64,000 bases of DNA from an uncultured Candidatus Peribacteria bacterium (GTDB lineage Bacteria; Patescibacteriota; Gracilibacteria; Absconditabacterales; Absconditicoccaceae), in assembly GCA_964403415.1 (NCBI GenBank), contig CAYOFF010000001.1, forward strand, positions 69,834-133,833, given 5' to 3'. The notes beneath the pieces were generated by a model. The model saw nothing but the letters and a program-made list of their open reading frames with translations. It had not been told where the DNA came from and ran no database searches. Each line of letters begins with the position of its first letter. Position 1 is the first letter of the stretch. Shown in pieces: positions 1 to 64,000 of the stretch. Made by a program: the position numbers and the translations under genes.

Positions 1-413
1 GATGCAGAGAATACGGGGACAAAACACAACAACATCGCTGCCAAAAATAACGTCCGCATGTACGATCACGTCATCTGCAACAAGAGCGCTATAGTCTGTT
101 GCTCCAGAGCAAATGTAATCAACCAGTATCGGAGTGCGCTACCTCATAGAAGCACCGCCATTACTTGTATAATGCTTTTGGAAGTCAGACGTTCTGCTCG
201 TCTTCATCACACATAATACCCCGCACTCAACGCCAACAAAATAATACCCAAAAAAACTGACGTCAGTACAATACTGCTTCACACCACAGGTATCGCAAGT
301 CTCAGTACTAGTATTTCTACGGCAAGCGTCGCAAATCCTTCCAATCCCGCGATGAGCAGGATCTCTTTGGTGGTGATTGTATTTTCAGATTTTTTTGCTA
401 CAGTGGTACTCAT
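1..413 (-). CDS. Polytopic membrane protein, N-terminal part. The gene runs off the left edge. A spermidine-synthase-like TM region is only a guess.
   Basis: Minus-strand ATG at 413-411. The frame stays open to the window edge with TGA=Gly (several in-frame TGA, no TAA/TAG). MSTTVAKKSENTITTKEILLIAGLEGFATLAVEILVLRLAIPVV[G]SSIVLTSVFLGIILLALSAGYY is a run of hydrophobic helices. Confidence 0.5.
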
Positions 414-442
414 TCGTTGTTTAGTAACCAGACCTAAAACCT

Positions 443-1462
443 ATGTACAAAAAGTTCACCTATCACGAGCTTTGCACCATACATACGAGTTTTTTTGAGC
501 ATATCAAAGCAATATGCGCCAAATACAAATATCCTTCCATCAAATCATTTTTGGATACATCTTTCCCAGAAGAGCAGGATCGTCTGTATTTTTTTGAGTC
601 CAACAAACCTGTTATGAGACGATATAAGCTTGGCACCGATACGTTTCGCCTCGTTGATGAGAGAGAAGCTATTGAGGTTATTCTTTGACCCGATGAGATC
701 TCGCACCTACACAACACCCTCAAAAATACACAGGCCATGAAGCAGCTTGCAAGCGACAATAAATCGCTTTTGGACCAGCTCCTCTGACAGTTTATCGGAT
801 GATCACGGCAAGCTATTTCTGGTAAACCATATCTCGTGTACGATATCGAAACCACGTTCACCGGCAACGAAATACACGACCAGCACTTTGAGATGGCATA
901 TTATATTTCTACGGACGATACACATACGCAGGACTCATTCAAGTATCATTATGTAGGTAGCGACCAGGCAAAGAAATTTTGTGATCACCTCCTCGCATAT
1001 GATGGATACATTATCGGATATAATCAAATTTGATTTGATAACCCCGTACTTGCGCTCAACGTCTGATACGGCGAAGCCGAAATCCAAGAACTCAATCGCA
1101 AAAGCATAGATCCATTTCTCTTTCTCTGGCAGCTCACATGAAGAAGAATGAGCCTCAACAACGTAGCGACCGCTCTCATTTCTTCTGGAAAAACACTCAC
1201 CTCCGGTAAAGAGTGAGAGATGCTCCTCCAACAATACAAAAAAACGGGAGACAACTCTCTCCTCCAAAAAGTCAAAAACTACTGCAAAAACGATGTCCGT
1301 ATTACTTTTGGAGTTTTCCTGTATCTCCTTTCTTACAACGCCCTACATGTCGATGACAAGAGTTATACATATGATCTAGAGACCTTACTACAACTTGGAT
1401 GATACACCGACAAGACACCTGTCACTGCTGAGCTTTCTAGCTCGTTATTTACTGCTGGATAA
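443..1462 (+). CDS. DEDD-type 3'-5' exonuclease (RNase H-like fold, PolB-exonuclease/YprB-like)
   Basis: Standard-code fragments 443-688, 836-1033 and 1220-1402 are one frame joined by TGA, ending in TAA at 1460-1462. Motifs seen: LVYDIETT (Exo I), GYNQI[G]FDNPVL (Exo II), YCKNDV (Exo III). Confidence 0.7.
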
Positions 1463-1468
1463 TTTTTC

Positions 1469-2311
1469 ATGAAGCAGCAACTAGGCACACCATCCGCTCA
1501 AGAGCAGCTTCTTGACTGCTATACTCAGCAAGCAGAGCAGTTTCGTCACACCAGAAAAAAACCTTGGCCTGAGATGGAGCATATTATCGCTGCTCTCAGT
1601 TCTGTCCCGAATACGCATACTCAAGGCACGTACGCACACACAGCAGCCGTATGATCAGCTACCCCTACGCATATTGTGTGGGACGTATGATGTGGGGCAG
1701 GAAGATGTTTCCCCTTACTTCAGGATGCGCTCCCATGACTTGATTATACCGGTATTGATTTTTCACCGTCATTTGTAGAGCTGGCTCGTCAAGAATATCC
1801 TACTGCTAGATTTGTGTGCCAAGACATGATCTCTTTCCTGCAGGATCAACCGTCACAGTCCAGCAATGCCATCATTGGTGTCGCATCGGTTCAACACCTT
1901 CCTACTCATCTTGATAGAGCGCGTTTTTTTGTTGAAAGCTATAGAACGCTCGCCTACTGAGGATCTCTCATACTTGTGAACCGATCCTTCTCTGAGCGAT
2001 TTTTTTCTACGTATACATGGCCGTTTTTGGAGGCAATACTCTATCGAGCATGATCGCTATGACAAAAACATTGGAATGATCTTTCGATTCCGCGAAAAGG
2101 TCCTGATCATCAACGTAATGGCCAGAGATTCGCTAGATTCTATCATATATTTACACTACGTGAGTTACGTTCGTATGCACTCCAAGCAGGGTTTGCTATT
2201 GAGGAGTTATGCCTAGTTGATACCACATGAGCGAAGACACATCAGATGCGCCATGCGAGGAATAGCTTTCTTGTGGCTAGGAAAATGCCTATTGTGTTTC
2301 CTTGAGCATAA
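1469..2311 (+). CDS. Class I SAM-dependent methyltransferase
   Basis: Motif I VWDV[G]CGAGR, then LDYTGIDFS and IIGVASVQHL. In-frame TGA codons only; TAA stop at 2309-2311. Confidence 0.75.
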
Positions 2312-5300
2312 GCGTCCCTCATCATTTGTTATTTGCGCTATCGATAATCGTATATGAGATCTGCCCCAGAGACTCTACTGAGAATACTGCGAGATTCCCA
2401 TCAAATGTGTATACATCCTCTCATCCTCTTTGGATTGATCACTTTTTGATTGTTGATGAGACATCGCTAAACAACAATACTACGTCATATCATCCTGTAT
2501 CTCTTTTGATAACTTTGACTTTGTCAGTCATAAGAAAAGGCGGCGTTGTGTCTTCTCAGATAAGAACAATAGGTATTGTCTTGCTATCACTATAGCCCTT
2601 TTCATCTGTCATCATGACTTTGAGCTCATAACTTCCTGGTTTCGTTACTGAGGGAAGCGTTACATTGGTGATATCTACCACTCCTCACTGTTTGTTGTAG
2701 GTGTATGACTTTAGCTCTACATCGTTGAGATATATTTTGACTGACGTAATCTTGAATGGAGACTTGGTTTGATGCCATACAGAGAAGGTTCTTGTCACTT
2801 TTTGTCCTGGCTCTGGCTGAATAATATTGAGGGCAATTTGTCACATTTGAGCTAACGCATTCCTTTCTTCACATTCTTTTTGCGGAGCTTCCAGAAGGAT
2901 CAATATACCCGATCCAAGCAAGGACTGGGCAGCGCCACTTCCCCATCGGTTATTGATGTCTTTTTGGTCGCGTTTGTCTGGGAGCATACTTTCTGGCTTG
3001 ATGATGTATGCGTCTTTGACATCTCACTCCGGTGTCAGTGATCATACTTTTCCATTACACAATGCGTCAACCTTGGTGACTTCCAAACTCGTATCTGCAG
3101 CTGTCGGTAGCGTATTGATGTATCCGAGTGATGTCACCGCAAACGCTAATGGGCTGTCTGCATTGACAAGTTTTCCACTGATTTTTGATATCGTTACAGA
3201 CTTCACTTCTTTCTGCTCTGGAAGCTGGTTAGAAATAAGATTATTTCCCTGAAGTTTTTTGATGAAATTTCTCCACGCAAGATTATTGATCCATCCACCG
3301 TACGCATCTCTTCTCAATGCGCTTCCATCTGTATTTCATCCCCAAAAGACCATCACTGATGAAGGCGTATATCACACGAGCCACCCGTCTCTTGGGAGCT
3401 TCTCTTTGGTTTTTGGATCTACGACATTTGTAGTTCCTGTTTTGGTAGCCATGGTTAGGCCTGGAATCGTGAACTTCTGTATCCACGATGCAGGCAGGTT
3501 TGAGTTATCCGACAAAATTTTCCACAACAAAAATGCTACGCCTGTAGGAATAACTTGCTCTCTTTGTTTCACTTGTTTCTTGTACAAAATCGATCCGTCA
3601 GCAGCCCTTATCTCTAGAATAGGATTAATCTCTGCTGGAGTCCCCATAGCACTTAGGTGCGTGTATGCAGTAACCAACTCATACATAGGAATTTCTGCAG
3701 ATCCGATCGCTAACGGATACCCATAATGATCTGGGCTCATATCTAGAGATACTATTCCTAGCTTTTGGAGAAATTGCTTGATAGGACCTTCTCCTCCTGC
3801 CATCATCAGCATCTTGATAGCAGGAATATTTCTACTTCCAGCTAGCGCAAGCTTGATTGGCATCAGTCCCTTGAATGTTCCATCAGCGTTATTTGGTTTG
3901 TCTTTACCGATAGTAAAGGCGAGATCATAAATAGGACTGTCTATAGTCAATGGATTTTTCATAAATCCGAGCGAATAGACGAATGGCTTGATGCTTGATC
4001 ATGGTTGTCTTTTGGATTGGATAATATCTACCTGTCCGTCAATTTCTTCGTTGTAGTAGTCTCTCGACCCCACATAGGCCATCACATCACCATTGAGACT
4101 ATTGACGTACATCATCGCAGCATTGTTGGACTTGTATTGGCTAGCTACTGCCTGATTTTCATTTATACTTTCTTCTGCCATTTTTTGGATATTGTAGTCT
4201 AGGGTGGTAGTAATCGTTAGCCCCCCTTTACGTAGAAGCTCTGCATCGTACTTCTCTTCAAGTAATTTTGTTACCCAAAAAACAAAATGAGGAGCTTTGA
4301 TCTCTTGTCTTGCACGTGCGAATGTGAAATTGAGCCCCCTGAGAAAGTTCTTCTTAAACTCGCTTTCGGTAATATATCACTCCTCATACATTCTTGCAAG
4401 GACAATATCCTTTCTTCCTGGCGTATAACTGACCTGGTACGTCTGCCCTTGGTAGGTCAGTGAGAAGTCTAGCAGTCCTTCCATAAATGAAATAATAGCA
4501 TCATCGCTCTTTTTGAAGGCGAGCTTCGCATTGTCCATATTTTGCTGTACTCTTTCTAGGATGAGTTGGTTGAGTTCTGTTGTCAGCTCTACTGGTGTCG
4601 TCTCGTCGTCTACAATATTTATTTTTCCCATTACAGCACCGTTGTTGGTATACGGGTCGTATCTTGATGGTGCCTGTGGAATACCTGCCAAGATCGCCGC
4701 TTGTAGGACATCTAGTTTATCGGCACCTACTCCAAAGTATGTCAGTGATGCGACCTGCACACCATATGAGTTATTGCCCAAAAAGATATAATTCGCATAC
4801 ATCTCCAAGATTTTTTCTTTTACTTTTTTGTCTAGTTCGTCACTTGAAAGATCAGACTGAGCGTTTTTGATCTCACGTTTGATATAAGAGTTAAGTTTGA
4901 TAGCCAAAATAATCTCTTTTACCTTTCTTTCGACTTTTTTCTCAGGAGTAAGCATAAGATTTTTGATGAGCTGCTGCGTGATTGTGGACCCTCAGATTGT
5001 TTTCCCCTGAGTAACGTCCGTAATAGCAGCCCTCAGCGTACCTTTTCGGTCCACACCAGGATTTGTCCAAAATCTCTGATCTTCTGTTGCTACCAGCGCA
5101 TTTACAAAGTACGGTGAGATTTTTTCGTATGGAATATACTCTCTATGCTCTTCAAAAAGCCTATACAGCGGTTCTCCGTTTTTGTCGGCTATGACGGTTG
5201 CCTGACTAAAACTATACTTCTCGATGTTTGAGATATTTGGCAGATCGCGTAGAATTGCAAAATAGAATCGTAGCACAGCAATAAGCACGGGGACACCCAC

Positions 5301-7518: not shown

Positions 7519-8019
7519 ATGAAAGACGCGCAAATACAGGACCTTATGGCTCGCTATCCGCTCCAGCAATGAGCTCATAATCCTATACTTAGGAGCGTGT
7601 GTACGCCTGTCTGACCGATTACCAAAGAACTCCGCCAATTTGGGAAGGACTTGCTGGCACTGATGCGGGCATACGATGGCGTATGACTTGCTGCACCACA
7701 GGTTGGCAAGACCATCAGGATGGCTGCCATCACTCAGCGAGATACAACCAAAAAAGAACGAGAGCTTATTCTCGAGGACGTAATGATCAACCCCGTAGTC
7801 TTGTCATCAAGCGACACACGTGTACGCGACAAAGAGTGATGCCTTTCACTACCAGGGATAGAATGAGAAGTCGAAAGATCTAAGCAGATAACGGTCAAGT
7901 ATACCAATCTCCAGGGCAAAGATATTATCAAAAAAATTTCTGGGTATAACGCCAGGATTATCTTACATGAGATCGATCATTTAGATTGAGTACTCTTTAT
8001 AGATAAGTTGGCTACGTAG
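7519..8019 (+). CDS. def: Peptide deformylase
   Basis: All three signature motifs are present, each using TGA for Gly: GV[G]LAAPQVG, E[G]CLSLPG, HEIDHLD[G]. TAG stop at 8017-8019. Confidence 0.95.
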
Positions 8020-8023
8020 CAGA

Positions 8024-16370: not shown

Positions 16371-16447
16371 TGGAGCAGATGACGAGACTCGAACTCGCGG
16401 CCTGTTCCTTGGCAAGGAACCGCTCTAGCCAACTGAGCTACATCTGC
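16371..16447 (-). tRNA. tRNA-Gly (anticodon GCC)
   Basis: Minus strand reads GCAGATGTAGCTCAGTTGGCTAGAGCGGTTCCTTGCCAAGGAACAGGCCGCGAGTTCGAGTCTCGTCATCTGCTCCA. Full cloverleaf with encoded CCA. Confidence 0.9.
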
Positions 16448-17079: not shown

Positions 17080-18900
17080 TTACATCTGATCGAGCGTCTC
17101 TACACCCAACAACGTGAGTCCCTGATGGAGCACATGCGCTACTGCCGATACTAAGCGAAGACGTAATGTCTTTTGGTGTTCTTGCTCTGCTTGTAATATC
17201 ATCACCTGTTGGTAGTAAGCATTGAAGAGATGTGCTATGTCGAGAAGATATCTTACCACAAGATATGGCTGATAACGCTCTGCTGCTTGCTGGATAACAT
17301 CTGGGAATTTGCTTAGTACCACCAAAATTTCTCTTCATCATGCGCCTATATCTTCTGCTGTAATAGTATTTTCAGTATCTACGACCACACCTACAGCAGA
17401 CCCTGCCGAACTAATGTTTTTGAAGTTAGGATCTCCCCCACCTTGTACTCATGATTTTTTGAGCATACTCATACAACGGGCATACGTGTACTGTACATAC
17501 GGTCATGTTTCTCACTCAAAGCTCAGTGAGGTTTGTTTGTCGAACACAAAATTTTTGCTTGCCTCGTATTTGAGGATAAAGAACTTTATTGCCGCCATTG
17601 CGATAGCTTCTGCTCTGTGGCGCAGCTCTTTCTCTTCCATATCCGCATATCTCTCGCGAAGAACTTCTCATGCACTCTCATGCATATCATCTGCGAGATT
17701 ATCCGCATCTACCACATTTCATGTCCTGCTTTTCATCTTGCCGTCTGGCAGACTAATCATCCCATAACTCATATGATAACATTTGGGCGCGAAGGAAAAT
17801 CAAAGGCGGTTGAAGACCTCGAACAGCACCTGAAAATGATACTCTTGCTCGTTTGCGACCACATATACCATACGATCCATCTTGTACTCTTCGTATCTCA
17901 GTTGCGCGAGCGCTATATCCTGTGTTACATAAATAGAAGTCCCATCGGCTCTGAGCATTACCTTGGTGCCCAGTCACACATCTTCGAGATCACATACAAT
18001 ATTTCATTTTTCGTCTTTGGTGAACAGCCCTTTTTCATATCGTTTGTAGACTACATCTTTGCCATGCTCGTAGTGTTCACTTTCGAAGTACTGTTTGTCC
18101 ATGGTTACACCATATCTTTTGTAGGTAGTTGCAAATCCCGCTATCGCTCGAGCATTCATTTGCTCCCGTAGCGCTCTGATCTCTAAGTCACCATCTTCCC
18201 ATTTCTTGAGCATCTCTTGTATTTCTTGCTCTGCGTCGGGATGCTCTTGTGCATATTGGTCATAACGCACATAGTAGTCACCCACAAAATGATCTGACTT
18301 CTTGGTGGGCTGCTGTCCTGCTCCAAACTTCTGGTAAGCGAGCATTGATTTACAGATATGGACACCACGATCATTGACGACTTCTGTCCTTATCGCCTTG
18401 TATCAGGCATGCAATAATAGGCTGCACAAAGCGTTTCCTAGGAGCATATTTCTCACGTGTCCTAGATGTAATGGTTTATTGGTATTTGGACTTGGAGACT
18501 CCACCAGAATAATCTCTTTCTTGGGAGATCCAGCTCCGTACGTATCTTTTTTTGTAAAAATTTCTTCTACGACGTCTTGTATACATCGTTGTACACTAGC
18601 TGATATATTGACGTATGGTCCTAGTGCTACAACCTGAGCAACACTGCCTCCTCACACGTTTTTTTCGCTACTCGTCCCTATTTTTGCTGTTATCTTAGCG
18701 GTCGCCGCTGCACTTATTTCTTGTGCTATCTGAGCGGGCGATTTTCCCAAAGTTTTGGCAAGCTGAAAACAAGGATACGCTAGATCTCCGTGCTGTTTGT
18801 GCATAGGTTCTTCTAGGAGAGCGCTTTCTATGGGGATCTCAAGCTCTTTTCATACCTCTTCCAGGAGCATTGCTGCTTCCTTGCGAAACACTTCAAACAT
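17080..18900 (-). CDS. argS: Arginine--tRNA ligase
   Basis: One frame from ATG 18900-18898 to TAA 17082-17080; all gaps checked. HIGH motif PNTNKPLHLGHVRN, mid region MLAYQKFG...DYYVRY, and a typical C-terminus ...LLGVETLDQM ending in Met. Confidence 0.9.
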
Positions 18901-19042
18901 ACCTCTCAAAAAACTAAAAATAACGCCTACCTATACCAAAATGGTTGCATTTTACAAAGAAATTTGTACTACCTGCGTACATTCTGACGCAATAGTCACC
19001 TCAACATCTGCGTATATACATATTGCATATATACATACCCAC

Positions 19043-24539: not shown

Positions 24540-25547
24540 TTATTTGAGGCAGTAGTGGAGGCAACTCGCTACATGAATTTCATCTGGTTGCCATACCCTC
24601 TGATAAGGGATGCGTAGCGTCTGCGCGTAGTGAAATGGCAACAGAAAACCTTGACATTGGCTGCCATATATTTCTTGTAAGACTTCCAAAAATGCTGGAT
24701 TTTTGAGGATTCTACCTATTGCTATGACTGATGTCTTTTCTGGTAAATACTGCCTCATTCGCTTCACTAACTGGCTTATAAAGGCACGATTTGCTTCTCC
24801 GACCGTCTTTTTTGCAAAGGGATGTTCTGCCGGAGAAGTATATAAGAATGCCTCCACACCGTACTCTCTATAGATTTTTTTGAGATGGTGGAGTCCTCGG
24901 TTTACATGCTCAATAGCCCTCCACCATCCTCATTCCAGGCGCATCAGTACTGTCTTTTCATCGTACATTACCAAGAGCACGTAACTTTCCTTATGGAGAT
25001 GATATGTCAAAAACTGGCAGGTGAAATAGCTTCTTGGATACACTTGGAGGCGTTTCACCTGCTGACCTTGACCAGTCACCCCGTTTTTTCACTGGTCTTT
25101 TCCTGGATCATATTCCTGGTGCTGATGCGCCCTAAGAGCATATGAGAGTTCTGGTTGGAGCATATATATCTGTAGATCAAACTGCAGATGGCCAGTCTTT
25201 CCTAGGAGATATTTTTGGGGCTGGCCATTCACGCGTCCATGAGCAATCTCATGATGCACGTATCGCGAGTCCTGATGATGATAGGCCTTGATGTACGAAA
25301 GCTTTTCTTGGACGATTCCTTTGAGATCATGCACCGTAAATGGCGTATGCGTCTGTAATGAGACCGAAAAACAAAAATATGAAAAGCCTTCCTCACCCAA
25401 AAGCAGGATATCTTCATAGATATTAGCATGTTTACAGAACGTTTCTAGAGTCTCGTCTAGCGATGTGTACCACGTTGTCGTAGCGCACTGATCAGCATCG
25501 CACGTGTAGATTTTCCAACGTCCCGAACAATCATACAAGATACGCAT
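24540..25547 (-). CDS. Hypothetical protein (335 aa). An actin-fold (PilM/FtsA-like) ATPase is suspected.
   Basis: Fragments 25089-25547 and 24540-24857 are one frame joined by two TGA. The segment YVLLVMYDEKTVLMRLE[G]GWWRAIEHVNRGLHHL...SVIAIGRILKNPAFLEVLQEIYG resembles sugar-kinase/actin-fold phosphate motifs. This resemblance is weak. Confidence 0.45.
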
Positions 25548-28967: not shown

Positions 28968-29017
28968 CCCTTTTCCTTCGTCATGGATATACTCTGTGTG
29001 ACGGAAAAGGGTTTTTG
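28968..29017 (+). terminator. Strong hairpin plus T-run after frr
   Basis: CCCTTTTCC(TTC)GTCA-loop-TGACGGAAAAGGG followed by TTTTT. It lies only about 20 nt before the next ATG. Confidence 0.6.
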
Positions 29018-29038
29018 TTTCTCGAAGTTTGACGCATT

Positions 29039-33223: not shown

Positions 33224-33420
33224 TGTTGTAAGCACACCTACTAAAATAAGACAGAATGTATCTAAAATAGCTCAAAATACAATATTTACTACAAAAGCTT
33301 CCTATATTTTGCGCCAGCCTTTCGATTGAGATTACTCTACAAAACAATACAGAGTATTAGAACGTGCAATATGTGTACGCGCAGTTTGTGTCTATAGACA
33401 TCCCTATCTGTGAGGTTATA

Positions 33421-33470
33421 GATATTTATACTTGCGAGAACACCAAGCCTGTAAAGGCATGGATATTTAT
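33421..33470 (+). promoter_or_regulatory. Copy B of the module (ends 15 nt before the preferred ALDH ATG)
   Basis: GATATTTATACTTGCGAGAACACCAAGCCTGTAAAGGCATGGATATTTAT. Identical to copy A at 42 of 50 positions. Confidence 0.5.
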
Positions 33471-33485
33471 TCGTCACCACGCTTC

Positions 33486-34880
33486 ATGCCTGTACTTATA
33501 TCAACCAATCCGGCGGCTGCATTTTTGCCACTTGGCGAAGTCCATGTATCTACGGACAGCGACATCATTCGTGCCGCTCTGGATGCACGCACTGCTTTGC
33601 CAGAGCGAAAACATCTTGGTGTAGCAGGAAGAGTTCGTGCCCTCAGAAGAGTGTTTGAAATATACATTGCCCATGAAGAAGAACTTGCTACTCTCATTAC
33701 CAAAGAAGTTGGAAAGCCTATTTTACAGAGCAAGTTTGACCTTGCCACAGATAAAGAGTATTTTGGTTGGTACTTGGACAATACTGAATCCATTCTCTCT
33801 CCTCGCACCACATATGAAGATGAAAATGAACTACATAGGCTCTTTTTTGAACCGCTTGGCGTTGCAGTTGCAATTTCACCCCGAAATTTCCCTAGCATGC
33901 TCTTTGTACGACAAGTTATTCCTTTGCTTTTGGCTGGAAATACTGTTCTTTTCAAACATTCCCACGAATGTCCCCTCGTAGGCAAACTACTCCAGGATAT
34001 TTTTCAGGCGGCAAGTATTCCTCACTGAGTTTTCACGCACATTGTTGGCGAGTGATCGTCCGCATGAAAACTCCTTCTTGAACAAAATATAGATTGTATT
34101 TCATTTACTGGCAGCACTTCTACGGGAGCACACATTAGAAATACCGCATCACTTAAAGGTATTCCGGCAATTACTGAACTTTGATGATCTGCCCCGGGAA
34201 TCGTTGCTCCAGATGCCGATATTTCTACTGTTGTGGACGCAGTGTGGTTCTACAGGTATTTCAATAACGGACAGATTTGTGACTGACTCAAGAGACTACT
34301 CGTGCATCAGTCTAGATTTCAGGAGGTATGTGATGCTATTACTGCAATGCTGCAGACCAAACATATTTGAGACCCCCTTGATGAACGTACAGATTTTGGA
34401 TCACTTGTCTCAGCTAAACAAGTTTCCCTCCTCCAAGCCCAGCTCCATGATGCACGCACACGCGGGGCTCACATCCATGAAATATGACACATTCCGGAGT
34501 CTTGCACATGAGCATTTGTTCTCCCAAGCATTATCACAAATGTTACGAGCGATATGCGCATATGGAGTGAAGAGGTCTTCTGACCTGCGCTACCTATTGT
34601 TTCATATAACACTCTTGATGAGGCTATTATGCTTGCCAACAAAACAGATTTTTGACTCTGAGCGTACCTCTTCACACATGATCCCTCTGTCATCGATCGT
34701 TGCTCAGACGAGCTTGAAACAAATATGCTTAGTATCAATTGAACAAATTATTGTAGACCACGAAATCCTTTTGGCGGACGCAAACAGTCTTGACTCTGAT
34801 CAGAACATGGTCACCTGTGACTTTATGAACTCGTGCATAGTAAAATCATCACCACTACCAAAACATCTCCAAAAACATAA
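33486..34880 (+). CDS. NAD(P)-dependent aldehyde dehydrogenase
   Basis: PLGVAVAISPRNFP, KHSHECP, FTGSTSTG, TEL[G][G]SAPG, FNNGQICD[G]LKR, EEVF[G]PALP, PFGGRKQS[G]L[G]SEHG. TAA at 34878-34880. In-frame alternative starts at 33459 and 33432 lie inside the upstream repeat module, so 33486 is preferred. Confidence 0.85.
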
Positions 34881-35675: not shown

Positions 35676-36262
35676 AGGTATGAAATTTCGTTTCGACTCT
35701 CAAGATCGTACTCACCATTGTTATAAGAAACAATGCTACATGAGGCAACCGCCACATCAAACTTTTCATGATCAGCTAGATCTCCTTTCAATAGAACACG
35801 CATGAGGGCCCTAAGACATCACTTGTGTGTCACAATCACTACACATTTTTTTCATAACGACACAATATTATTGAGCTCAAGGAGCAGTCTATTTTCCATA
35901 TCCTCTCGTGACTCCGCCTCTGGCGGCGCAAATTTATACCTTTCTTCGATATTCATCGGAGATAAACGATCTTTAACTTCCTCTCGTTCACACCCTCATC
36001 GCTCGCCCCATTTTCTTTCTTGAAAATTCTCTATAATTACTGGCTCTATGCCCACCATATCAGCTATATGTCATGCTGTCTGTACTGCTCTTATTTTGGG
36101 CGAGCACACAATATAGTCCGGCATTTCCTGTTCTAGACGCTTTGCCAAACGAAGAGCTTGTTGATGTCAGAGTTCTGTAAGTTCTGTGTCATCATTTACG
36201 GTTTTCCCCTCCACTCTAGCATTATTATAACTTTCGGCATGTCTTACAAAAATAATACGCAT
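35672..36262 (-). CDS. Histidine phosphatase (phosphoglycerate-mutase-like) family protein
   Basis: MRIIFVRHAESYNN (RHG motif variant), LTEL[G]HQQA, CSPKIRAVQTA, VIVTHK[G]CLRAL. ATG 36262-36260, TAA 35674-35672. Confidence 0.75.
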
Positions 36263-39923: not shown

Positions 39924-41366
39924 ATGTCTCTCTACCTCAAATATCGCCCAAAAACACTTGAAGACATTGTCGGTCAGGCACATATCACGGACATTCTTCA
40001 TGCGCAGGCGGCTCATCAACATTTTTCCCAGAACTACCTCCTCTATGGACCCAGAGGCACATGAAAGACATCTACAGCCAGAATTATCGCAAAACTCATT
40101 AACTGTACTACGTTTAGAAGCGATGGGACACCGGATCTTCTTAATGATCCATTGGCCCAACTCATTGATACATCGAGAACACTTGATATTGTTGAAATTG
40201 ATGCTGCTTCTCACACTGGCGTAGATAATGTAAGAGAAGAGATTATTGAAAAAGCCCCTTATCCTCCGACAGCACTCAAACAAAAAGTCTATATCATTGA
40301 CGAAGTTCATATGCTCTCCAAGGGTGCATTTAATGCGCTTCTCAAGATTATGGAGGAACCGCCCAAATATCTTACGTTCATACTAGCCACTACAGAGCTA
40401 CACAAGGTACCCGAGACAATTATTTCCCGCTGCCATGTGTTCCAGTACAAAAAGATCGGTATCCCAGATATCACTGCTAGGCTCAGTCATATAGCGTCAC
40501 TTGAAGATATTCAGACTACTCCTGGGTGAATTCACCTTCTAGCAAAAGTAGCCTGATGATGACTTCGTGACGCCGTCAAGTATCTCGAACAGATAAGTCT
40601 TTCTGGGGTCGTGGATGAAGAACATGTAACACGCTACCTATGACTAGCCTCTGATGAACAAGTTCGCTCTTTCTTTACTCTTGCCCAACAACGCGATCTT
40701 CCTCAGCTCATAGCCTTTATAGATAGCCTTAGTCACCTTTGAACAGATCTTCTTCAGTATACCAAATCCTTAGTTTTTTTTGCTGATGAACACTTTCTAC
40801 AAGACCCAAAGACGTGTTCGGATCTTATTCAGATGGCTGAATATATCTTAGCAAAAAGTAAATATACACCTTCTCTCAGTGCCTTGTATAAAGCTGCTGT
40901 CTTCCATACTATCGGACACCAAGCCACTGTGCACCAAGCAGCTACACCACAGACAGCGACACCTAAAACAACACTAGAGAGACCGGAATCGCAACCAGTA
41001 GCACCCATATCTATGGATTCGACGGATATTTCTTTGGATACTTCGACTGTTGTAACTGATAGTGCCCCGGAGAACAGTTCACCACAAACATGATCATGAA
41101 CCAACAACAACGATGTCTTACTCAAGGTCATCGCACACATCAAAAACCCTATGATTTCCTCTATTTTGAGACAACATACACATCTCCAACGCTACCAGGA
41201 CAACGTAGTACATCTTATTGTTGTCAATGAAAACTATCATCAGCTCCTTCTCAAACCAGAAACTATGCATCAGCTCGAGCAAGCATTTTCTACTGTGTAT
41301 GAGTCTCCCACGACCGTAGATTGTATGTATATGTCCAAACAGGATTTTGTGGATAGTCAATTCTAG
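39924..41366 (+). CDS. dnaX: DNA polymerase III subunit gamma/tau
   Basis: KYRPKTLEDIVGQ, Walker A GPRGT[G]KTS (TGA at 40062-40064), IVEIDAASHTGVDNVRE, Walker B VYIIDEVHMLS, SRC-type ISRCHVF, [G][G][G]LRDA. TAG at 41364-41366. Confidence 0.9.
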
Positions 41367-43785: not shown

Positions 43786-43910
43786 GTAACACGTGATCAA
43801 ACAAAATGTACCAAAAGTATAGGCAAATAGTGGGGTTTTGTCAAATTCTTTCTTCTAATATTCAGTCTTTCTCGGTTGCTTTTTTTGACAAAAACGTGAT
43901 AGATGTTCTC

Positions 43911-51583: not shown

Positions 51584-53161
51584 CTACGTATCTATAAAAA
51601 ACTGTTTGGGTCTATACTGTAGAGCCTCTGCCATATGATGCGCATTGATTATAGTAGCTTGCTCAAGATCCGCTATTGTTCTAGCGACCCTCAATAGTTT
51701 GTGCGTGATCCTCGCAGACAGATGTAATCTTTTCGATGCTTCTTTCAATAGCCTTTCTGATTTTTCATCACATTTTACATATGTCCATAGGTTACGTACA
51801 CTTAAATACGCATTTGCATAGATATTTTCACCCTTATATCTTCTTTGCTGAATTTCATATGCCTGTTGTACCGAACTCGCATATTGTTGGTACCTCTCTA
51901 TGGGTGGAGGTCAGAGAAGGACATCTACCTCCTGTCTAGCAACCGACAACAGTAGATCACATCTTTCACGTCGCGGTCACGATACTCTTGCTTGGTACTT
52001 TTTTACTTCATGGGTACTACATACGCATGCGTGCTCTGGATCTCCATAGTATCAACAAGGGCACGCATTCATAGCCGCTATAACCAAACATTGTGTAGGA
52101 TATCTAACAGATCACTGCGCACGGGATATCATAATATATCCGTCCTCTAGTGGTTGCCTTAGTGCTTCTAGTGTTTCTCTATTAAACTCTGGAAGTTCGT
52201 CCAAAAATAAGACTCAATGATGAGCCAAACTCACCTCTCAGGGGAGTAATGATTGTCATCATCACACAATAGCAACTTTTGTGACTGTATGATGCACTTG
52301 TCTAAATGGTCTTCTTGTTATCATCGGGCAGTTTGATGATAACTTTCCTGCGACAGAGTATATTTGACTTACCTCAAGTGTCTGCTCAAACGACAATCAT
52401 GGTAATATACTAGCTACTCACTGTGCTAAAAGCGTTTTTCATGTTCATGGAGGACTTTTTAGGATACAATTATGCGCACCTGCAGCCGCAATTACTAGCG
52501 CTCTTTTTGTCTTCTCATGTCCTTGAATATCAGAAAATGTTATTTGAGTTTGCGAATTTTCATGAGACATACTTACAATTACTGCGTTTTGTGCAACACC
52601 ACCTGTTCTGATTTGATCGTATATACTTACTAATGGGGCTTCTCACCTCAGCATCTGTACAAATGCTTCAAAGTTTTTGTACGCGTATATAGAAATATCT
52701 GGAACGTATTTAATCTCTTCCACATTACCATAGGGCACAAAAAAATGCGTATACCCCTCTCTGCATGCAGACAAAACTGATGGCAATACTCATGAGACCG
52801 GTCTTATCTCACCATCAAGTCATAATTCTCCTATAAAGATACTTGTCGCACAAATCGTTCTTATAGACTGTTCGCACGGGCACAACAGCATAAATAATGC
52901 TGTTGCGAGAGCCAAATCAAATCTTGTTCCTGTTTTCTTGAGATCAGAAGGAGAAAGGTTCAGTATAATCTTACGAGGAGGCATTACTATTCAGATACGT
53001 TTGAACACCGCTCTTATTCTCTCTTTTGATTCTCTAATTGCAGTATCTGGTAGTCATATAATTTCTATACCAGGCAGCGCGCTTGCCTGATCTGCCTCAA
53101 TTTGAACCTCATATCAAACTAGCCCTATATTCATATAGGTTTTTATTTTTGGTATTTGCAT
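51584..53161 (-). CDS. comM: Mg-chelatase-like AAA+ ATPase ComM/YifB
   Basis: Walker A SPP[G]T[G]KT, HH[G][45 protein letters not shown] 53161 (alternative 53134). TAG at 51586-51584, 3 nt before the galU start. Confidence 0.85.
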
Positions 53162-53413
53162 GTATTGAACTAATGAAAAATTATTACACGCCGCCTGCAG
53201 GCAGTTGTGTGTGATGTTTTTTTGTATTTGCAAATTGTCTATATATGGGCAACGACCGTGCACGGAAGAATGAATTGGACCAGTGTTGTACTTTTGTTTT
53301 GTATTTTTGTTTCTTCCCTTTGCCCCTTGAGCATACACAAAAAAAAATTGTCTGCAAGCATGACATTTCTGCTTATTTTAGCCGATATCACATATATCTA
53401 TTTTCCCCTCTTT

Positions 53414-54932: not shown

Positions 54933-55019
54933 CTCTTTGTTGAGAAAACAAAAGCACTATGAGTATACAAATATCTCTTTCGATAGTCAAATTTTATGCA
55001 AGAATAACGTATCTATAGT

Positions 55020-55445
55020 CTATGAAAAGAAGATAACTAGCACACTTACTAGTATTCATACCTTACAAATAAACATTAGGCGCTTATTTGAGGCTATTTT
55101 TGATGGCATTGGCGGTACAATACTTAGAAAATCACTTTTTATGGAGATAAGTGAGCATAAGAAGCGTATATCCTCATATATTCATGCTTGATGCGTCGTA
55201 TATACTGCAATCGGATCGTTTTTCCTTATATCATTCAAAAAAAGGTTTGTGTGAAAAAAAACTATATGCTGAGCCTTTTCGTCCTTATAAATTGCTGTGC
55301 GCGACTCAAAAAAGAGTTTATTTAGGATAGCGAATGCTTGTTCATACCGCATGTATACCTCTTTTTCTCCTATTTTTCTTGCCTCACTACTTCGTTTTAC
55401 GCCAAATAGACATACTATCAGACCTATTATACCTACCAGTAACAT
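55020..55445 (-). CDS. Hypothetical membrane protein (141 aa)
   Basis: MLLVGIIGLIVCLFGVKRS (N-terminal TM helix) and a C-terminal hydrophobic tail ILVSVLVIFFS. Extended through TGA to TAG 55022-55020. Confidence 0.45.
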
Positions 55446-55912
55446 GACGTATCTTCGGGAAGTAAAATCTTAATCACTTTAGGGGTTTTTTGTAGAATTG
55501 GAATGCTATTTCTTCGAAAAATAGGAATCTTTCTATTAATAAATACTTTCTTTAACGATTTTGATCATATTTTTTCTCATAACATTAGACCTCTAACCTC
55601 CCTATATTCACCTAGATTATCTTTTTTTATCCATGGCATACTGCCCACATCTCACCTATTTTCCCAAAACTTCTTTTGTGCTCTTATTAGATAACATTTT
55701 CCATGTGACTTAAAAAAATATATACCCTTTATGTATATATGTCATGATGTTTTCTTGTTTTCGAAAAACGAAGCAACAACCCCCAATTGCTTAGCATACC
55801 ATCAAAATTGACGATGTAATTCAAAAAGTACTGAATATACACCTCCTACTGATGTATCATGCAGTAATACATATTCCTCACAGTCTCATCGTATGGGAGA
55901 TGGCTGTAGAAC

Positions 55913-56689
55913 ACTATAAGACAGTAGCTTTTCCGTCGAATACTCCACATGAGATAAAGCGCTATATAATTCTAAAAATCATGCACCTAAATTTCACATG
56001 TATTCTACCTTATCTCATCCTTTGTTTCATGTGTCTTGTATACATTTTCTTATGTAATTCCTTAATGAAACACTACTATCTGTATTAGTCTTGTCTATGA
56101 CATATGGTATCTTGAGCCATTCTACGCAGTCCATGATAACATGTTTTTGGAGTCTCAGTAATGGACGATAGTGTATATATCATTTCTTTTTTTGGAACAT
56201 TCTCATGTTTTGCATTCACAAACGCGAAGCTCAACGCAAAAGATGTAATAGCGTTGTCTCAATACGGTCATCCAAATGATGTCATGTACAAATAACCGTA
56301 TTTTCTCCTAATCTTTTGGCAATAGACTCCAAAAAACAATACCTACTCTCCCTTAATCACGCCTCATTCTCTATTCATTTGAAGCGACACGCTCAAATAT
56401 ACTGCATTCCCTGAGCACAATTTCTTACTAGAAGCTCATCATCTCAGGCTTCTTCTCTCACGTTGTGATGATAGTGTACAACAAAAAGTTTTGATAGATC
56501 ACCACTTCTTTTCTCTACAAAACTTCTCAATATCCATAACAAAAACATACTATCTGCTCCACCAGAGACCGCAACTATAATATTTTTCTCTATAATTCTG
56601 TATGTATCACATAATTCCCATATCCTCTCACAGAGGTTGGATATGCTCAGATTGTTTTTTGTGGTGGTATCAGTATTATTTGTTATCAT
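55913..56689 (-). CDS. tilS: tRNA(Ile)-lysidine synthase (short form, PP-loop domain)
   Basis: PP-loop IIVAVSGGADSMFLL, VVHYHHNVRE, T[G]HHLDDRIETTLLHLLR[G], YRPLLRL, DKTNTD...LRNYIR. TAG at 55915-55913. Confidence 0.8.
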
Positions 56690-56708
56690 TTATTGTCAAT
56701 AGCATCAA

Positions 56709-57194
56709 ATGAAAGATTATAAATTCTCTATAAAAGTCTCTGATCTTTTGCGCCATCCTTGAACAACTGATACCCTACAGTTACATAACAAATTTTCAAC
56801 AATTCTTCCACTAATTGAGGTCCCTTGAATACAAGCTATTGTAGAACTTGTATGATTAGACAACAAAACAGTGCTTCTTACCATCGTTTCTGCATCATGT
56901 ACTGTTTGATCTACCTGCGATAGGTGTGGCACAGAATTTCAAGAAACCCTTTCTGTAAGCTCAATTATCGTGAAATGCTTTTTGGAAGAGGAAAGTAGTC
57001 AAAATTCTTTTGAATGAGATGATATTATTGTCATATCCAAAAAAGATGAAACCATAGATATTGAGCATGTTATTGTTGAGGCTTTAGTTCTCCAAAAAAG
57101 TGTTAAAAGTTTGTGTAGTGAGTGTCAAGCTGTGTCTACTAATGATAGTGATGATGAAGCCGAAACCACGTGAGTAATAAAACGAGTAGAGTAA
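56709..57194 (+). CDS. YceD/DUF177 family protein
   Basis: 161 aa with paired Cys motifs TCDRCGTEF and LCSECQA and an acidic tail. TAA at 57192-57194. Confidence 0.6.
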
Positions 57195-57267
57195 TTTTGA
57201 CAGTGTTTTTGTATTATTGTTATTATTATATTTTAAATATATAGTATTTATAATAAGGCTGATCATA

Positions 57268-57555
57268 ATGGATATTCTTTTAACAATTGTTTTGATATAT
57301 ATTCTTGGGATAAACATCTTTACGTTTTTTTTGTTCTGATTTGATAAGATAAAAGCTATTCGTATTTGATATCGTGTTTCTGAAGATAGTTTGTTAAAAT
57401 ATTGTTCTCGGGGATGAAGTTTGTGAGGCTTCATAGGTATGCTTGTTTTTCATCACAAGGTGCAAAAACCATCCTTCCAAAAAAGGTTTTATGTGCTCTT
57501 TGCTATTCAGGCAGTCTGAGTGCTTGCTTTCGTCTTGTTGCGATCTTTTATGTAG
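57268..57555 (+). CDS. DUF1294-family small membrane protein
   Basis: NIFTFFLF[G]FDKIKAIRI[G]YRVSEDSLL...[G][G]SL[G]GFIGMLVFHHKVQKPSF matches the DUF1294 pattern. TAG at 57553-57555. Confidence 0.6.
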
Positions 57556-57612
57556 TTTTTGGGAGTATTTTTCTGTACATCTAGCGTGCAATTTATTTCC
57601 TATACCACACCC

Positions 57613-60012
57613 ATGTCTATAAAAAAGCACATATTTTTTGTATTGTTTTGATTTTTATTTCCTCTTAATGTCTTTTGTTATGCACAATCTTCATCTCTCG
57701 AGCTTACAGAAGTGTATTTTGATGGTACTGATGAGCGAGTAGAGATCACAAATATTTCGTCAGTACCATTTGTGGGAGAAGTGTCTTTGTCTGGTGCAAA
57801 ATCTTCGTTAGTATCTGCATCTCTTTCTTTGGATCCCTGAGAAAGTATTGTTATTGGTGATGATGGGAAAATGCTTTTGAGTGGGTATGTGTTTATTGGT
57901 AATAACTGATTGCAGTTAGCAGATACATCACAGATAAGACTTTGGTTACATGGTCCATGAGTTGATAGTTTTTTTGAAGTTGATAGTTGACTAGTATCTG
58001 AGTTAAACAATACACAAACTTCTTTGTGCAAAAGCCCGTTACAAGTTGTTGGAGCTTGTGGTGAACAAGATACACATGGTGTTGTTTCCTGAGTGATAGC
58101 AAACCCTTGAATAGTGGGTGAGTGATGGCTGATTCCTGCCTCTGGAGATATTGGTTCGATTGTAGAAAGTGGTGTTTTGTTGTGATCATGAGAAGATACT
58201 ATACTTACGTGAGATGGTATGTTTACATGAGATGGTATAGATGGCGATATTTTTTTAGATACATGATATTTGGAATGAGCGTCCTTGTGTGTGCCTGTGG
58301 AAACCGGTGTAATACAACCTATATATTATCCTTCACCGCTTTTGATTAGTGAAATATATCCATTTTCGAAATATTCTGGATCCTATATAGAAGTGTATGC
58401 GAGGGGTTCGTATAGTTGAGTTGTGTTATTTACGTGAGCAGGTGCGTGAGAAAAATCTTTACGTGTACATGTAGATGTGGATACGTGAGTATATATCGTG
58501 TTTGCTGCAGGGGAGCGATGAGACTACATACTTACCTGACTTTCATTACGTGATGATGGTGAAACAATAGGCCTTGTTGATGATAGTGCTCATGTAATGG
58601 ATAGGGTAGTGTATTATTCGGGATCGTCTATAAAATCTCATTACTTTTCGTCGTACTCATGAGATCTTAGGGTTTTTTCTGCAAAATGAGATATCTCTCC
58701 TCAATATGAAATGTCTATTATTTCTTCCAATGATACAACTAATGTGTGATACGGTGGGTGTTGGATTGATTTGGAGCGCAGTTCAACATATGCGCATGGT
58801 TCGTCTTTAAACTTCAAAGCGGTCTTATTAGACCAGTGATGAAACGAAATGAATGTATCTTCGTACCGCTGTTTACGAGAGTATGGAGATGGTCGCCAGG
58901 AGCAGTGATCCTGTAACCCTTGATGGTTTACGTATTCGTGAGAGGGGTTATATACTATTTCACTTACAGTATTGAATGATAATTTACGCGTGTGTCAGAC
59001 TAAGCAGTTTATTAATTATGTAGATACTACACCTACTAAAACAGTATCTTGATCTAGTAGTTCTACGGTTTCATGCCCGGCAATAACTACACCAAAAACC
59101 ACACAAATACTTGTACAGCAAGCGGTCTCAAATGCCACGTGAATGATTTCTTGAAGTATTATTGGTGCTTTGCCTAATCCTGCATGAAAAGACGGAGATA
59201 ATGAACGTATTTTTGTTCGTATTTCGGGTGATGTGATACGTGCTGAATTATTGGGATTGCGCTTAAAAACCTCTAAAAAACACTATCCTCTCAAGTGATG
59301 AACATCTCTAGGTAGTTGAATGTATGTATTTGATGGTTGATTTGGTCTTCATAATGGTTCGTGATGTTTGGAGTTATTTCAAGAAAGTCGTCTGTTAGAT
59401 ACTTGGTGTTATTCCTCTGTCAAGGAATGAACTGTAATTTGGCGTGATTGAGTAAATATAAATGCTTCCTCAAGTTATACATGAGATTCTATAGCTGCTT
59501 CTTTTGTAAGTAGCTCTGTTCGTGGGGGGCTTGCAGTACCAAAAATATCAGCACCGTCAATAAAAACAACATGATCCAAAACCGCAAAGAGCACAGTTAG
59601 TTGAACATCCTCAAAGCAAGTTACCAAAAAAACATCCACATCTTCTGATGCCAAAGACAAAAAAATACAACAACTTTCAAAAGAAATTACTTCAACGGAG
59701 CGCATAGTTCAACTCCAAAAAAACTACATACACTTACTTTCTAGTGAAATGGGTGCAGTATCTCATGTATTTACTTGAAATAAACTTCAATTGTTTGATA
59801 AAGCATATCGTTCTCTTATGAGTTTTGCTAAACAACAACCTTCTGTTCAAGTTCAAAACACAACCATACCAGTTACTGATATACGTACCTACCTTTCATT
59901 GGTACATAATATACTACCAATCCAATCAGACTTATCTATACCGTATAGTAAAGTACGAGCTGATACTCTACGTCAATACTGATATATGTGGGGTGTTTTG
60001 TATCGTGGATAG
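57613..60012 (+). CDS. Secreted 799-aa protein with lamin-tail-domain (LTD)-like modules
   Basis: Frame 1 is open from ATG 57613 to TAG 60010-60012 with more than 50 in-frame TGA; every line was checked. Signal peptide MSIKKHIFFVLF[G]FLFPLNVFCYA. LTD-like segments: LELTEVYFDGTDERVEITN, LLISEIYPFSKYSGSYIEVYA, IIGALPNPA[G]KDGDNERIFV. Confidence 0.7.
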
Positions 60013-60062
60013 TTGTTTGGGAATGTCTCTGGTAGAGGGGAAATATTTATATTTTTTGTAAA

Positions 60063-60968: not shown

Positions 60969-60985
60969 GTGTATTTGCTTGTAGT

Positions 60986-61036: not shown

Positions 61037-61052
61037 ATTGGAGAAATTTCAG

Positions 61053-62543: not shown

Positions 62544-62555
62544 GTATATTAGATT

Positions 62556-62627
62556 CAAGGGCGCCTGGATTCGAACCAAGTCCTTCGGCTTCGGAGACCG
62601 ACATGCTACCAATAACACCACGTCCTT
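62556..62627 (-). tRNA. tRNA-Arg (anticodon CCG)
   Basis: Minus strand reads AAGGACGTGGTGTTATTGGTAGCATGTCGGTCTCCGAAGCCGAAGGACTTGGTTCGAATCCAGGCGCCCTTG. Anticodon loop CTCCGAA, good T-arm, one A-C mismatch in the acceptor stem, CCA not encoded. Confidence 0.6.
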
Positions 62628-62909
62628 GTGTGAATATGGTGTTTTGTATCGATATTCATGCGTGGTGCAAGACCTATCATACCACAAAAATTACAAATAA
62701 CAACGACATAAGTTGTCACAAAGTAGACAGTGTGTCGTATTCCCCATTAGAGCTGCGAAATTCTGGGTTTTGCGCTCCCGTTCCCGTCGTGTTGTATCGT
62801 ATTGTATTCATGGGTTTTACTTGAATTGACCATGTGAATGCGTAGGATGCTGTGCAGGGAGCAATCCTTTACTATTTCTTTATCTTATATTTATTTTTCC
62901 ATGTACAAC

Positions 62910-64000
62910 ATGAAAAAACTTCTCGCAGGTCTTTCTGCTGCTGCAGTAGCTGCAAGTAGTATGCTCACTCATGTTGCTGTGGCTGCGTATTCTTACGCTG
63001 ATGACGCTGAGTATGTTGCAGCATTCAATTGGTTGCACGACAACGGTCTCACAAGTAAGGACACGCCAGAGGCATTTATGCCAGGCAGCACCATGTTGAG
63101 AGAACATCTTTCAAGATTCGTAACGTATTTTGGTCTTGGTAACCAGTGTTTGGAGCCAGATATGGACGCATCTTGTGACTTTAGTGATCTCTCTTCTGCA
63201 GATGAGACACTACAAAAGTATATTACAACTTCTTGCCAACTCGGTGTACTCAAGGGTTCACAGGGAATGTTTATGCCAGGTAAGTCTGTTACAAAGGCTG
63301 AATTGGCAACAGCACTCGTAAGAATGCTTGACGGAGAGAAGTCAGAAGACGGACCAGTTTGGTACGCTAACTACTTCACTGCTGCTAAGGCACTCGGTCT
63401 TACAAAAGACGCATCTTGGGCTAACTGGGGTAATCCAGTGTCAAGATACGAGGCTGCTCTCATGCTCTATAGAGCTAGAGATACACAGGCACAGTGTGAC
63501 TTCGATCCTACAAAGATCGAGAATGATAACGATCTTTGGGATTGGTTGGAGCAGTTGTTCGGTGATGGTACAACCACTACAGGAACAACTGATACAGGAA
63601 CAACTCCTGTTACATCAAACGGAATGGTTAAGGCTATGCTAAGTGATACAACACCAGCAGGAGGAAGAGTAGCTGGTTTGACGTCATTGAATGTAGCTTC
63701 ATTCAAGTTGATGGGAGAGAGAGACGACACTGTTCTCCAAACAGTTACTGTTGAGAGATTCGGTCTTAATAGCAGCACGGCTGTTTCTAAGGTAGAGCTC
63801 GAGATCAACGGTGAAGTTGTTGGAAAATCTAAGTCACTCAATAGTGATGGGAAGGCAGTCTTCTCATTCTCTAAGCCAGTGACGATTAAGGCAGGTCAAC
63901 ATGTTACTGTAGATGTAGTTGCTACTATTGGTGACTCATCAGGTTCAAGTAACCAGGACTTCAGAATGGGTCTTGTTGCATTTGATACCAACGGTACTGA
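62910..64000 (+). CDS. S-layer-type surface protein with three SLH-like repeats then a beta-rich region. Partial; it runs off the right edge.
   Basis: MKKLLAGLSAAAVAASSML signal peptide. SLH-like segments: FSDLSSADETLQKYITTSCQLGVLKGSQGMFMPGKSVTKAELATALVRML, plus two more. Open to the window end (an in-frame ATG also sits at 62901). I saw no in-frame TGA in about 363 codons. Confidence 0.8.
   Translation, partial: MKKLLAGLSAAAVAASSMLTHVAVAAYSYADDAEYVAAFNWLHDNGLTSKDTPEAFMPGSTMLREHLSRFVTYFGLGNQCLEPDMDASCDFSDLSSADETLQKYITTSCQLGVLKGSQGMFMPGKSVTKAELATALVRMLDGEKSEDGPVWYANYFTAAKALGLTKDASWANWGNPVSRYEAALMLYRARDTQAQCDFDPTKIENDNDLWDWLEQLFGDGTTTTGTTDTGTTPVTSNGMVKAMLSDTTPAGGRVAGLTSLNVASFKLMGERDDTVLQTVTVERFGLNSSTAVSKVELEINGEVVGKSKSLNSDGKAVFSFSKPVTIKAGQHVTVDVVATIGDSSGSSNQDFRMGLVAFDTNGT

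Follow-up and report, generated by a model that had tools for sequence, protein, structure and literature searches.

We examined the genetic code in use in a 64,000-nucleotide stretch of contig CAYOFF010000001.1, referred to below as the window. The GC content of the whole window is 41%. With TAA and TAG as the only stops, it contains 46–49 gene models (about 48 protein genes) and 88–92% of the sequence is coding. Protein families confirmed using Pfam are Transgly/Transpeptidase, Pep_deformylase, tRNA-synt_1d, RRF, UPF0176/Rhodanese (TrhO), Aldedh, GATase, His_Phos_1, RNase_HII with QueH, DNA_pol3_delta2, Glyco_transf_28 (MurG), TP_methylase (RsmI), Mg_chelatase (ComM), ATP_bind_3 (TilS) and Competence (ComEC). 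Three codons stand out in these genes. TGA occurs in frame, on positions where related proteins have glycine. CGA and CGG occur on positions where related proteins have tryptophan. The features concerned are listed in Table 1.

When TAA, TAG and TGA are all treated as stops, two stop-to-stop open reading frames (ORFs) exceed 300 amino acids and the longest has 387. Freeing TGA from the stop set raises this number to 33, and the longest ORF to 2001 amino acids. As a control, freeing TAA gives 4 ORFs above 300 amino acids and freeing TAG gives 3. Hence, the excess of long ORFs obtained without TGA as a stop is far above chance. The ORF list made with translation table 11 contains just 12 ORFs of 170 amino acids or more per 64 kb. 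A preliminary description of the window, made from the sequence and such a list, had stated that the ORF track was broken up by TGA, and that every gene that could be closed ends in TAA or TAG. Both statements are borne out by the counts. The ORFs above 300 amino acids rise as described and, among closed genes, 24 end in TAA and 20 in TAG, with no other ending. TGA accounts for 511 of 19,551 codons (2.61%) and is present in 47 of the 48 genes. Read as glycine, it is the most used glycine codon, ahead of GGA with 345 occurrences. The corresponding counts for CGA, CGG and TGG are 123, 24 and 155. In 18 kb of flanking sequence, TGA, TAA and TAG behave as they do in the window.

The in-frame TGA codons fall within hallmark motifs of unrelated families. 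Three of these had been given coordinates in the preliminary description, in DnaX, Def and PBP1A, and each is a TGA in the coding frame. The other motifs named there can all be recognised when TGA is translated as X, and their families were confirmed by Pfam. They are SPPXTXKT in ComM, IXGSTITQQ in PBP1A, EXCLS and HEIDHLDX in Def, DEAGRXPLAXPV in RNase HII, ELXX in the aldehyde dehydrogenase (ALDH), XICLXCQ in the GATase protein, CTGXIRCE in TrhO and XXGSGGH in MurG.

Table 1. Features bearing on the genetic code of the window. Positions are window coordinates unless a flank is named.
Feature	Position	Strand	Observation
Whole window	1..64000	.	~48 protein genes with TAA/TAG-only stops; 511 in-frame TGA, 123 CGA, 24 CGG
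TGA in PBP1A transpeptidase motif RQP-TGA-SSIKP	3999..4001	-	Translation and Pfam
Def gene	7519-8019	+	
TGA at Gly of Def motif 1, GV-TGA-LAAPQ	7684..7686	+	Translation and Pfam
tRNA-Gly(GCC), ordinary, A3:U70	16371..16447	-	ARAGORN
ArgS gene, archaeal-type	17080..18909	-	Five TGA on 85-99% Gly columns; one CGG and one CGA on conserved Trp columns
CGA in ArgS	18148..18150	-	Column Trp in 76/102 homologues (75%), Arg in 24
CGG in ArgS	18166..18168	-	Column Trp in 90/102 homologues (88%), remainder mostly Arg
ALDH gene, 16 TGA, three CGA on Trp columns	33309..34880	+	Pfam, PDB alignments
CGA in ALDH	33606..33608	+	Trp in E. coli AldA, PDB 4v6h and 6bjp
CGA at Trp of ALDH hallmark motif PWNFP	33882..33884	+	Trp in E. 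coli AldA, PDB 4v6h and 6bjp
CGA in ALDH	33909-33911	+	Trp in 6bjp but Arg in AldA and 4v6h
CGA in histidine-phosphatase motif G-x-W-x-G	35999..36001	-	Aligned to Trp in PDB 4ij5
TGA at invariant Gly of DnaX Walker A, YGPRGT-TGA-KTS	40062..40064	+	Translation and Pfam
ComM/YifB gene, 19 TGA	51584..53338	-	13/19 TGA on columns >=85% Gly in relatives without Trp excess
tRNA, anticodon CCG (ARAGORN label 'Arg')	62555..62628	-	A1:U72, G73 and U20 (no A20) in canonical 7-bp register
tRNA(UCA), 74 nt	upstream flank L135 3270-3343	-	G1:C72, C2:G71, G3:C70, U73

The meaning of TGA was assessed by alignment to 15 Escherichia coli K-12 orthologues (frr, rnhB, tilS, murG, dnaX, uvrB, aldA, argS, def, mrcA, galU, rsmI, trhO, yifB and ytjC). 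The window proteins were aligned with TGA masked, giving 4,331 aligned codons. Glycine faces TGA at 64 of 107 sites, alanine at 13 and tryptophan at none. The rate at which TGA faces glycine (60%) is like that of GGA (59%), GGT (54%), GGC (57%) and GGG (64%). In a BLOSUM-based likelihood test on the same alignments, glycine was the best reading of TGA by 135.5 bits over the runner-up, alanine. The test regained the standard meaning of 55 of the 61 sense codons and, with the exception of TGG, CGA and CGG, its misses were by 1.3 bits or less. Codon composition can be read in the same way. GGN codons make up 4.57% of the total, and adding TGA brings glycine to 7.2%.

Deeper alignments were made for two proteins. 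For ComM, 120 homologues were aligned. In the 55 relatives without an excess of tryptophan, the TGA columns counted in Table 1 as at least 85% glycine include 10 that are glycine in all 55. Some of these 55 may themselves be table-25 translations, and full independence is limited to the comparisons with E. coli and the Protein Data Bank (PDB). A further 61 relatives have 3.3% tryptophan and 3.0% glycine, with tryptophan and glycine swapping at the TGA columns. These tryptophan-rich relatives apparently derive from code-25 organisms whose genes were translated with table 4, TGA and GGN interchanging among them. In the ArgS alignment, the five TGA columns are again largely glycine. Compared with the solved ALDH structure PDB 4v6h, 12 of 16 TGA codons lie opposite glycine. 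In aligned conserved columns, where the preliminary description had proposed to look, TGA thus meets 85–100% glycine (ComM and ArgS), and it faces no tryptophan in E. coli.

Pfam scores respond in the same direction. Changing X to glycine at TGA raised Aldedh from 334.8 to 379.8 bits, Mg_chelatase from 236.4 to 270.2, TP_methylase from 52.0 to 71.7, Competence from 107.1 to 126.6, GATase from 47.8 to 63.8 and RNase_HII from 73.5 to 91.0.

Six tRNA genes lie in the window and none of them has the anticodon UCA. The flanks were taken as 10-kb pieces from ENA ERZ15185866 NODE_1_length_675472, the same contig as the window; the same proteins are also present on a 932,216-bp NCBI contig. The ENA assembly is identical to the window over 33.6 kb and one base differs over a further 11.5 kb (99.99%). 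In total, ~82 kb (window and flanks) were examined for tRNA, and 12 distinct tRNA genes were found. A tRNA cluster lying ~6.2 kb upstream of the window start encodes Leu-UAA, Glu-CUC, Arg-UCU, Ala-UGC and Tyr-GUA, along with a 74-nt tRNA whose anticodon is UCA. The base pairs and discriminator base of the latter (G1:C72, C2:G71, G3:C70 and U73) are those that PMC8629427 uses as the set for bacterial glycine identity. By all four identity elements, the predicted tRNA(UCA) is of the glycine type. Hence, the tRNA that the preliminary description had proposed to seek in the rest of the genome is present on the same contig. ARAGORN labels it 'SeC' due to the anticodon alone. Its cloverleaf is normal, with 7/4/5/5 geometry and a 4-nt variable loop, and it is not a tRNA-Sec. 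The genes called in the flanks include neither prfA nor prfB.

Four independent lines, namely the E. coli alignments, the deep ComM and ArgS alignments, the Pfam scores and tRNA(UCA), indicate that UGA almost certainly specifies glycine here, and neither tryptophan nor termination. This was the central claim of the preliminary description. UGA as glycine defines NCBI genetic code 25, used by Candidatus Absconditabacteria (SR1) and Gracilibacteria (Campbell et al. 2013 and Rinke et al. 2013, as cited in PMC8629427). The two are united in class JAEDAM01 of GTDB (PMC13092985). The window resembles code-25 genomes in having UGA as a frequent sense codon on glycine columns, TAA and TAG as the only stops, the same four tRNA(UCA) elements and small, patchy gene content like that of Candidate Phyla Radiation (CPR) bacteria. 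With regard to UGA itself there is no difference. No rRNA is present in the window. The nearest ComM relatives, other than the genome's own entries, are 47–48% identical, and just one of them carries a name, 'candidate division SR1 bacterium'. Together, the code and the ComM relatives are consistent with placement in the Absconditabacteria/Gracilibacteria group.

The remaining deviation concerns CGA and CGG, and lies outside table 25. In the E. coli alignments, arginine stands opposite 59% of AGA codons and only 3 of 16 CGA codons, the other residues facing CGA being phenylalanine, leucine, tryptophan, isoleucine and similar. CGG faces tyrosine twice, tryptophan and valine. In the likelihood test, which uses BLOSUM and a single reference, arginine is 12.2 bits below the best reading of CGG. 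CGA and CGG also occur at individual sites where tryptophan is conserved, in ALDH, ArgS and the histidine phosphatase (Table 1). The ArgS homologues with arginine at the tryptophan columns overlap those with tryptophan at invariant glycine columns. It follows from this overlap that mistranslated relatives share both code changes. Arginine in relatives at the column of the ArgS CGG codon is read here as a CGR codon (CGA or CGG) that would have been misread likewise. ComM is uninformative on the meaning of CGA and CGG; it has no conserved tryptophan column and one CGA. Separately, ComM residues 456–457 of the 584-residue model (the 52100–52110 region) are encoded by CGA-CGT where relatives have the Leu-Leu of SGPLLDR. 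This CGA is explained by neither arginine nor tryptophan, and CGT is a normal arginine codon elsewhere.

We compared three translations of the Pfam-supported proteins (8,644 residues), summing the scores of non-overlapping families. Reading CGA and CGG as tryptophan instead of arginine raised the sum by ~32 bits over 70 codons. In the control, reading 72 genuine CGT codons as tryptophan lowered it by ~99 bits. Gains were found for Aldedh (+17.2), His_Phos_1 (+12.1), tRNA-synt_1d (+4.6), QueH (+4.0), CHAP (+3.6) and Transgly (+3.5). In proteins with CGA only (ALDH, RNase HII-QueH, PBP1A and LysM/CHAP), the tryptophan reading gained 28.7 bits.

The window encodes a tRNA with anticodon CCG. ARAGORN draws its acceptor stem with 8 bp, and we re-set the register manually with U8 in its canonical place. 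An A-C mismatch in its acceptor stem kept minimum free energy folding from recovering the cloverleaf of this tRNA, and the cloverleaf is that of ARAGORN with the manual register. The anticodon stem has 5 bp. The anticodon arm, CGGUCUCCGAAGCCG, is nearly the same as CGGUCUCCAAAACCG of E. coli tRNA-Trp. By comparison, the tRNA-Arg(UCU) of this genome (upstream flank L135, 2387-2461, minus strand) has A20. According to PMC8629427, a tRNA of this kind is of the tryptophan type when it has G73 and no A20. Hence, under that rule, tRNA(CCG) is a tryptophan-type tRNA. It is read here as the decoder of CGG, and that it is charged with tryptophan we infer. The 8-bp acceptor stems shown by ARAGORN for both tRNA(CCG) and tRNA-Arg(UCU) result from possible pairing of G73 with the base that precedes position 1. 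As a consequence, the discriminator base appears displaced, and tRNA identities assigned automatically could be wrong.

A full-text literature search for CGA and CGG as tryptophan gave PMC8629427 and PMC13092985 only. In the first, Shulgina and Eddy (2021) used Codetta to predict CGA and CGG as tryptophan codons for Absconditabacteria/Absconditabacterales, and CGG as tryptophan in some Gracilibacteria. In the second, both codons were assumed to mean tryptophan in Absconditabacterales, and all tRNA(CCG) genes of that order had 5-bp anticodon stems. The window shares with this variant the presence of CGA and CGG on conserved tryptophan columns, AGA as the dominant arginine codon, and a tRNA(CCG) with G73, no A20 and a 5-bp anticodon stem. 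Following these two papers, the CGA/CGG feature points to Absconditabacterales. The code has thus been described before, and this genome adds one more member to the group. The differences, in CGA use and GC content, are ones of degree. Per 10,000 codons, the window has 63 CGA, 12 CGG and 79 TGG, and CGA reaches 69 in Pfam-supported regions. In the reassigned clades of PMC8629427, CGA is below 37 per 10,000 codons in all species (Pfam-aligned regions) and GC is 0.26–0.38, compared with 0.41 for the window.

Judged by these comparisons, CGA and CGG very probably mean tryptophan in this organism, their amino acid being taken from the alignments. The preliminary description had assigned table 25. 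The UGA part of this assignment stands, but the table is not the whole code of the organism. CGA and CGG behave as tryptophan codons and, on that reading, a table-25 translation would still misread ~0.75% of codons. Taken together, a doubly altered code, with UGA as glycine and CGA and CGG as tryptophan, in a bacterium of the Absconditabacteria/Gracilibacteria group is in our view highly probable. The window would then be chromosomal DNA of an uncultured member of that group. UGA would be an ordinary glycine codon, read by a dedicated tRNA-Gly(UCA) carrying the bacterial glycyl-tRNA synthetase identity set. Termination would use UAA and UAG alone, presumably with release factor 1 (RF1) as the sole reader and RF2 lost. 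CGA and CGG would have shifted from arginine to tryptophan. CGG would be read by the tryptophan-type tRNA(CCG) encoded in the window, and CGA presumably by a tryptophan-type tRNA(UCG). Arginine would be left to AGA, AGG, CGU and CGC.

Several observations weigh against a tryptophan meaning of CGA and CGG. In the single-reference likelihood test CGA is ambiguous, with phenylalanine best and arginine second by 1.1 bits. The sites at which CGA faces arginine in E. coli include one in RsmI. Some Pfam families lose score with tryptophan, namely Def (-4.9), MurG (about -4.9), GT1 (-2.0) and PS_pyruv_trans (-2.4). No tRNA(UCG) is among the 12 distinct tRNA genes of the ~82 kb examined, and both CGA use and GC content exceed the ranges reported for the reassigned clades (PMC8629427). 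The simplest alternative is plain table 25, in which UGA is glycine, CGA and CGG are still arginine, and the tryptophan columns reflect true Trp-to-Arg substitutions or misalignment. It would account for the CGA codons that face arginine, for the ambiguous likelihood and for the families that drop by 1–5 bits, and the G73 of tRNA(CCG) fits arginine identity too. Against this, the Pfam sum rises with tryptophan for CGA and CGG and falls for the CGT control. Arginine at the near-invariant tryptophan of ALDH PWNFP and at two ArgS tryptophan columns would be improbable in working enzymes. In addition, the relatives' pattern of arginine for tryptophan is tied to TGA use, and tRNA(CCG) lacks A20 and resembles tRNA-Trp. 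We consider plain table 25 unlikely.

Alternatively, decoding could be ambiguous or transitional, with CGA, and perhaps CGG, read as both arginine and tryptophan by competing tRNAs. The mixed evidence for CGA, with some sites arginine-like and others clearly tryptophan, would fit such a state, and ambiguity is not excludable without experiments (PMC8629427). However, CGA makes up 41% of the putative tryptophan codons and ambiguity would be costly at invariant tryptophan sites. No arginine-type CGA decoder was seen, in a search limited to ~82 kb. We regard dual decoding as very unlikely, and reassignment of CGA and CGG to tryptophan as the better account.

Reading UGA as tryptophan (table 4), as in Mycoplasma and some insect endosymbionts, gives the same gain in ORF length as table 25. 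In this respect the code of Mycoplasmatales/Entomoplasmatales and insect endosymbionts is like that of the window; UGA has a sense meaning, and not treating it as a stop restores the ORFs. Table 4 is also the code behind the public gene calls for this genome, and the public protein collection has table-4 versions of RsmI, ComEC and others. The amino acid differs. As the preliminary description had argued, tryptophan does not fit the TGA sites: it faces none of the 107 aligned TGA codons, and the TGA columns are invariant glycine. Changing glycine to tryptophan at TGA lowers nine Pfam families by 210.6 bits in sum; Aldedh, for instance, scores 315.9 instead of 379.8 and Mg_chelatase 224.2 instead of 270.2. 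Tryptophan content would be 3.4%. Consistent with this, tRNA(UCA) has U73 and a G1-C2-G3 glycine acceptor, with no tryptophan identity. Table 4 is refuted by the alignments and has next to no chance of being correct. Finally, a standard code with TGA as a true stop, and with pseudogenes, mis-assembly, selenocysteine or readthrough behind the in-frame codons, draws on nothing beyond the fragmented table-11 ORF track and can be dismissed: the 511 TGA codons are spread over nearly all genes and concentrated on glycine columns with no similar excess of TAA or TAG, which rules out the pseudogene and readthrough readings, the independent ENA assembly agrees with the window, and selenocysteine is also ruled out by the UCA tRNA, whose shape is ordinary.

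The choice of code has practical weight. Gene calling for this genome hinges on it, and table 11 shatters the genes. Table 4 misplaces tryptophan at ~2.6% of residues where glycine belongs, catalytic P-loops included. On the reading preferred here, table 25 would put arginine at ~0.75% of residues where tryptophan belongs, including ALDH PWNFP. In the public protein collection, the genome's proteins are found only as table-4 translations, with tryptophan at every TGA (RsmI is an example), and the glycine versions of the tested proteins are absent from it. The same tryptophan excess is seen there in around half of the ComM relatives and in ~17 ArgS relatives. Database searches for the clade therefore give residues that are wrong in a systematic way. 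If CGA and CGG do mean tryptophan, three codons deviate from the standard code and no NCBI translation table fits. All public translations would then be wrong at 0.75–3.4% of residues, with table 4 or with table 25 where it is applied.

For a specialist the interest is modest, since the code is known. Even so, the window would provide a well-supported example of stop-to-sense and sense-to-sense reassignment in one bacterium, two of its three changed codons being backed by tRNA evidence. Of the putative tryptophan codons, ~41% are CGA (123 CGA and 24 CGG to 155 TGG). Compared with the ranges in PMC8629427, its use and the GC content make it look as though CGA has rebounded into a major tryptophan codon. 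If so, CGA has ceased to be a rare captured codon, and 41% GC is beyond the low-GC range for which the reassignment was reported. Such an apparent rebound of a reassigned sense codon bears on codon-capture and ambiguous-intermediate models of code evolution. Whether this lineage represents the most advanced stage yet seen of arginine-to-tryptophan reassignment is a tentative suggestion, to which we give slightly less than an even chance.

A scan with a degenerate tRNA-Gly(UCA) pattern, in which matches are mostly due to chance, found at least seven glycine-type UCA tRNAs (GCG... acceptor, U73) elsewhere, none of them tied to this genome. Six of the contigs are labelled Akkermansia, Streptococcus, Thalassotalea, Marvinbryantia, Patescibacteria and Parachlamydiales. 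Genes of the Patescibacteria contig have no in-frame TGA. These UCA tRNAs may be suppressor tRNAs, contamination or parts of mobile elements.

Other observations concern the gene content of the window. Three TGA-rich ORFs of 1976, 1034 and 809 amino acids (8831-14761, minus strand; 29015-32119, plus strand; 41371-43800, minus strand) have no Pfam match. The product of the last is strongly acidic and repetitive. At ~55000-58000 there is a sign change in GC skew, and genes switch from minus to plus orientation near 56.7 kb, where TilS and YceD form a divergent pair. This arrangement is origin-like. No cluster of DnaA boxes is found at the skew switch (26 matches against 20 expected) and no dnaA gene lies near it. 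The closest named homologues of ArgS, 43–51% identical, are labelled 'Candidatus Woesearchaeota archaeon' or 'archaeon'. This possibly reflects exchange between CPR bacteria and DPANN archaea, or mislabelled bins among the homologues. UvrB (25563-27008, minus strand) has only 481 amino acids, matching residues 5–441 of E. coli UvrB. Its C-terminal helicase half is encoded nowhere in the window, and the adjoining ORF (24540-25547) has no Pfam match. Finally, a single 496-residue ORF (36400-37890, plus strand) combines RNase HII and epoxyqueuosine reductase (QueH) domains, in what looks like an unusual fusion.

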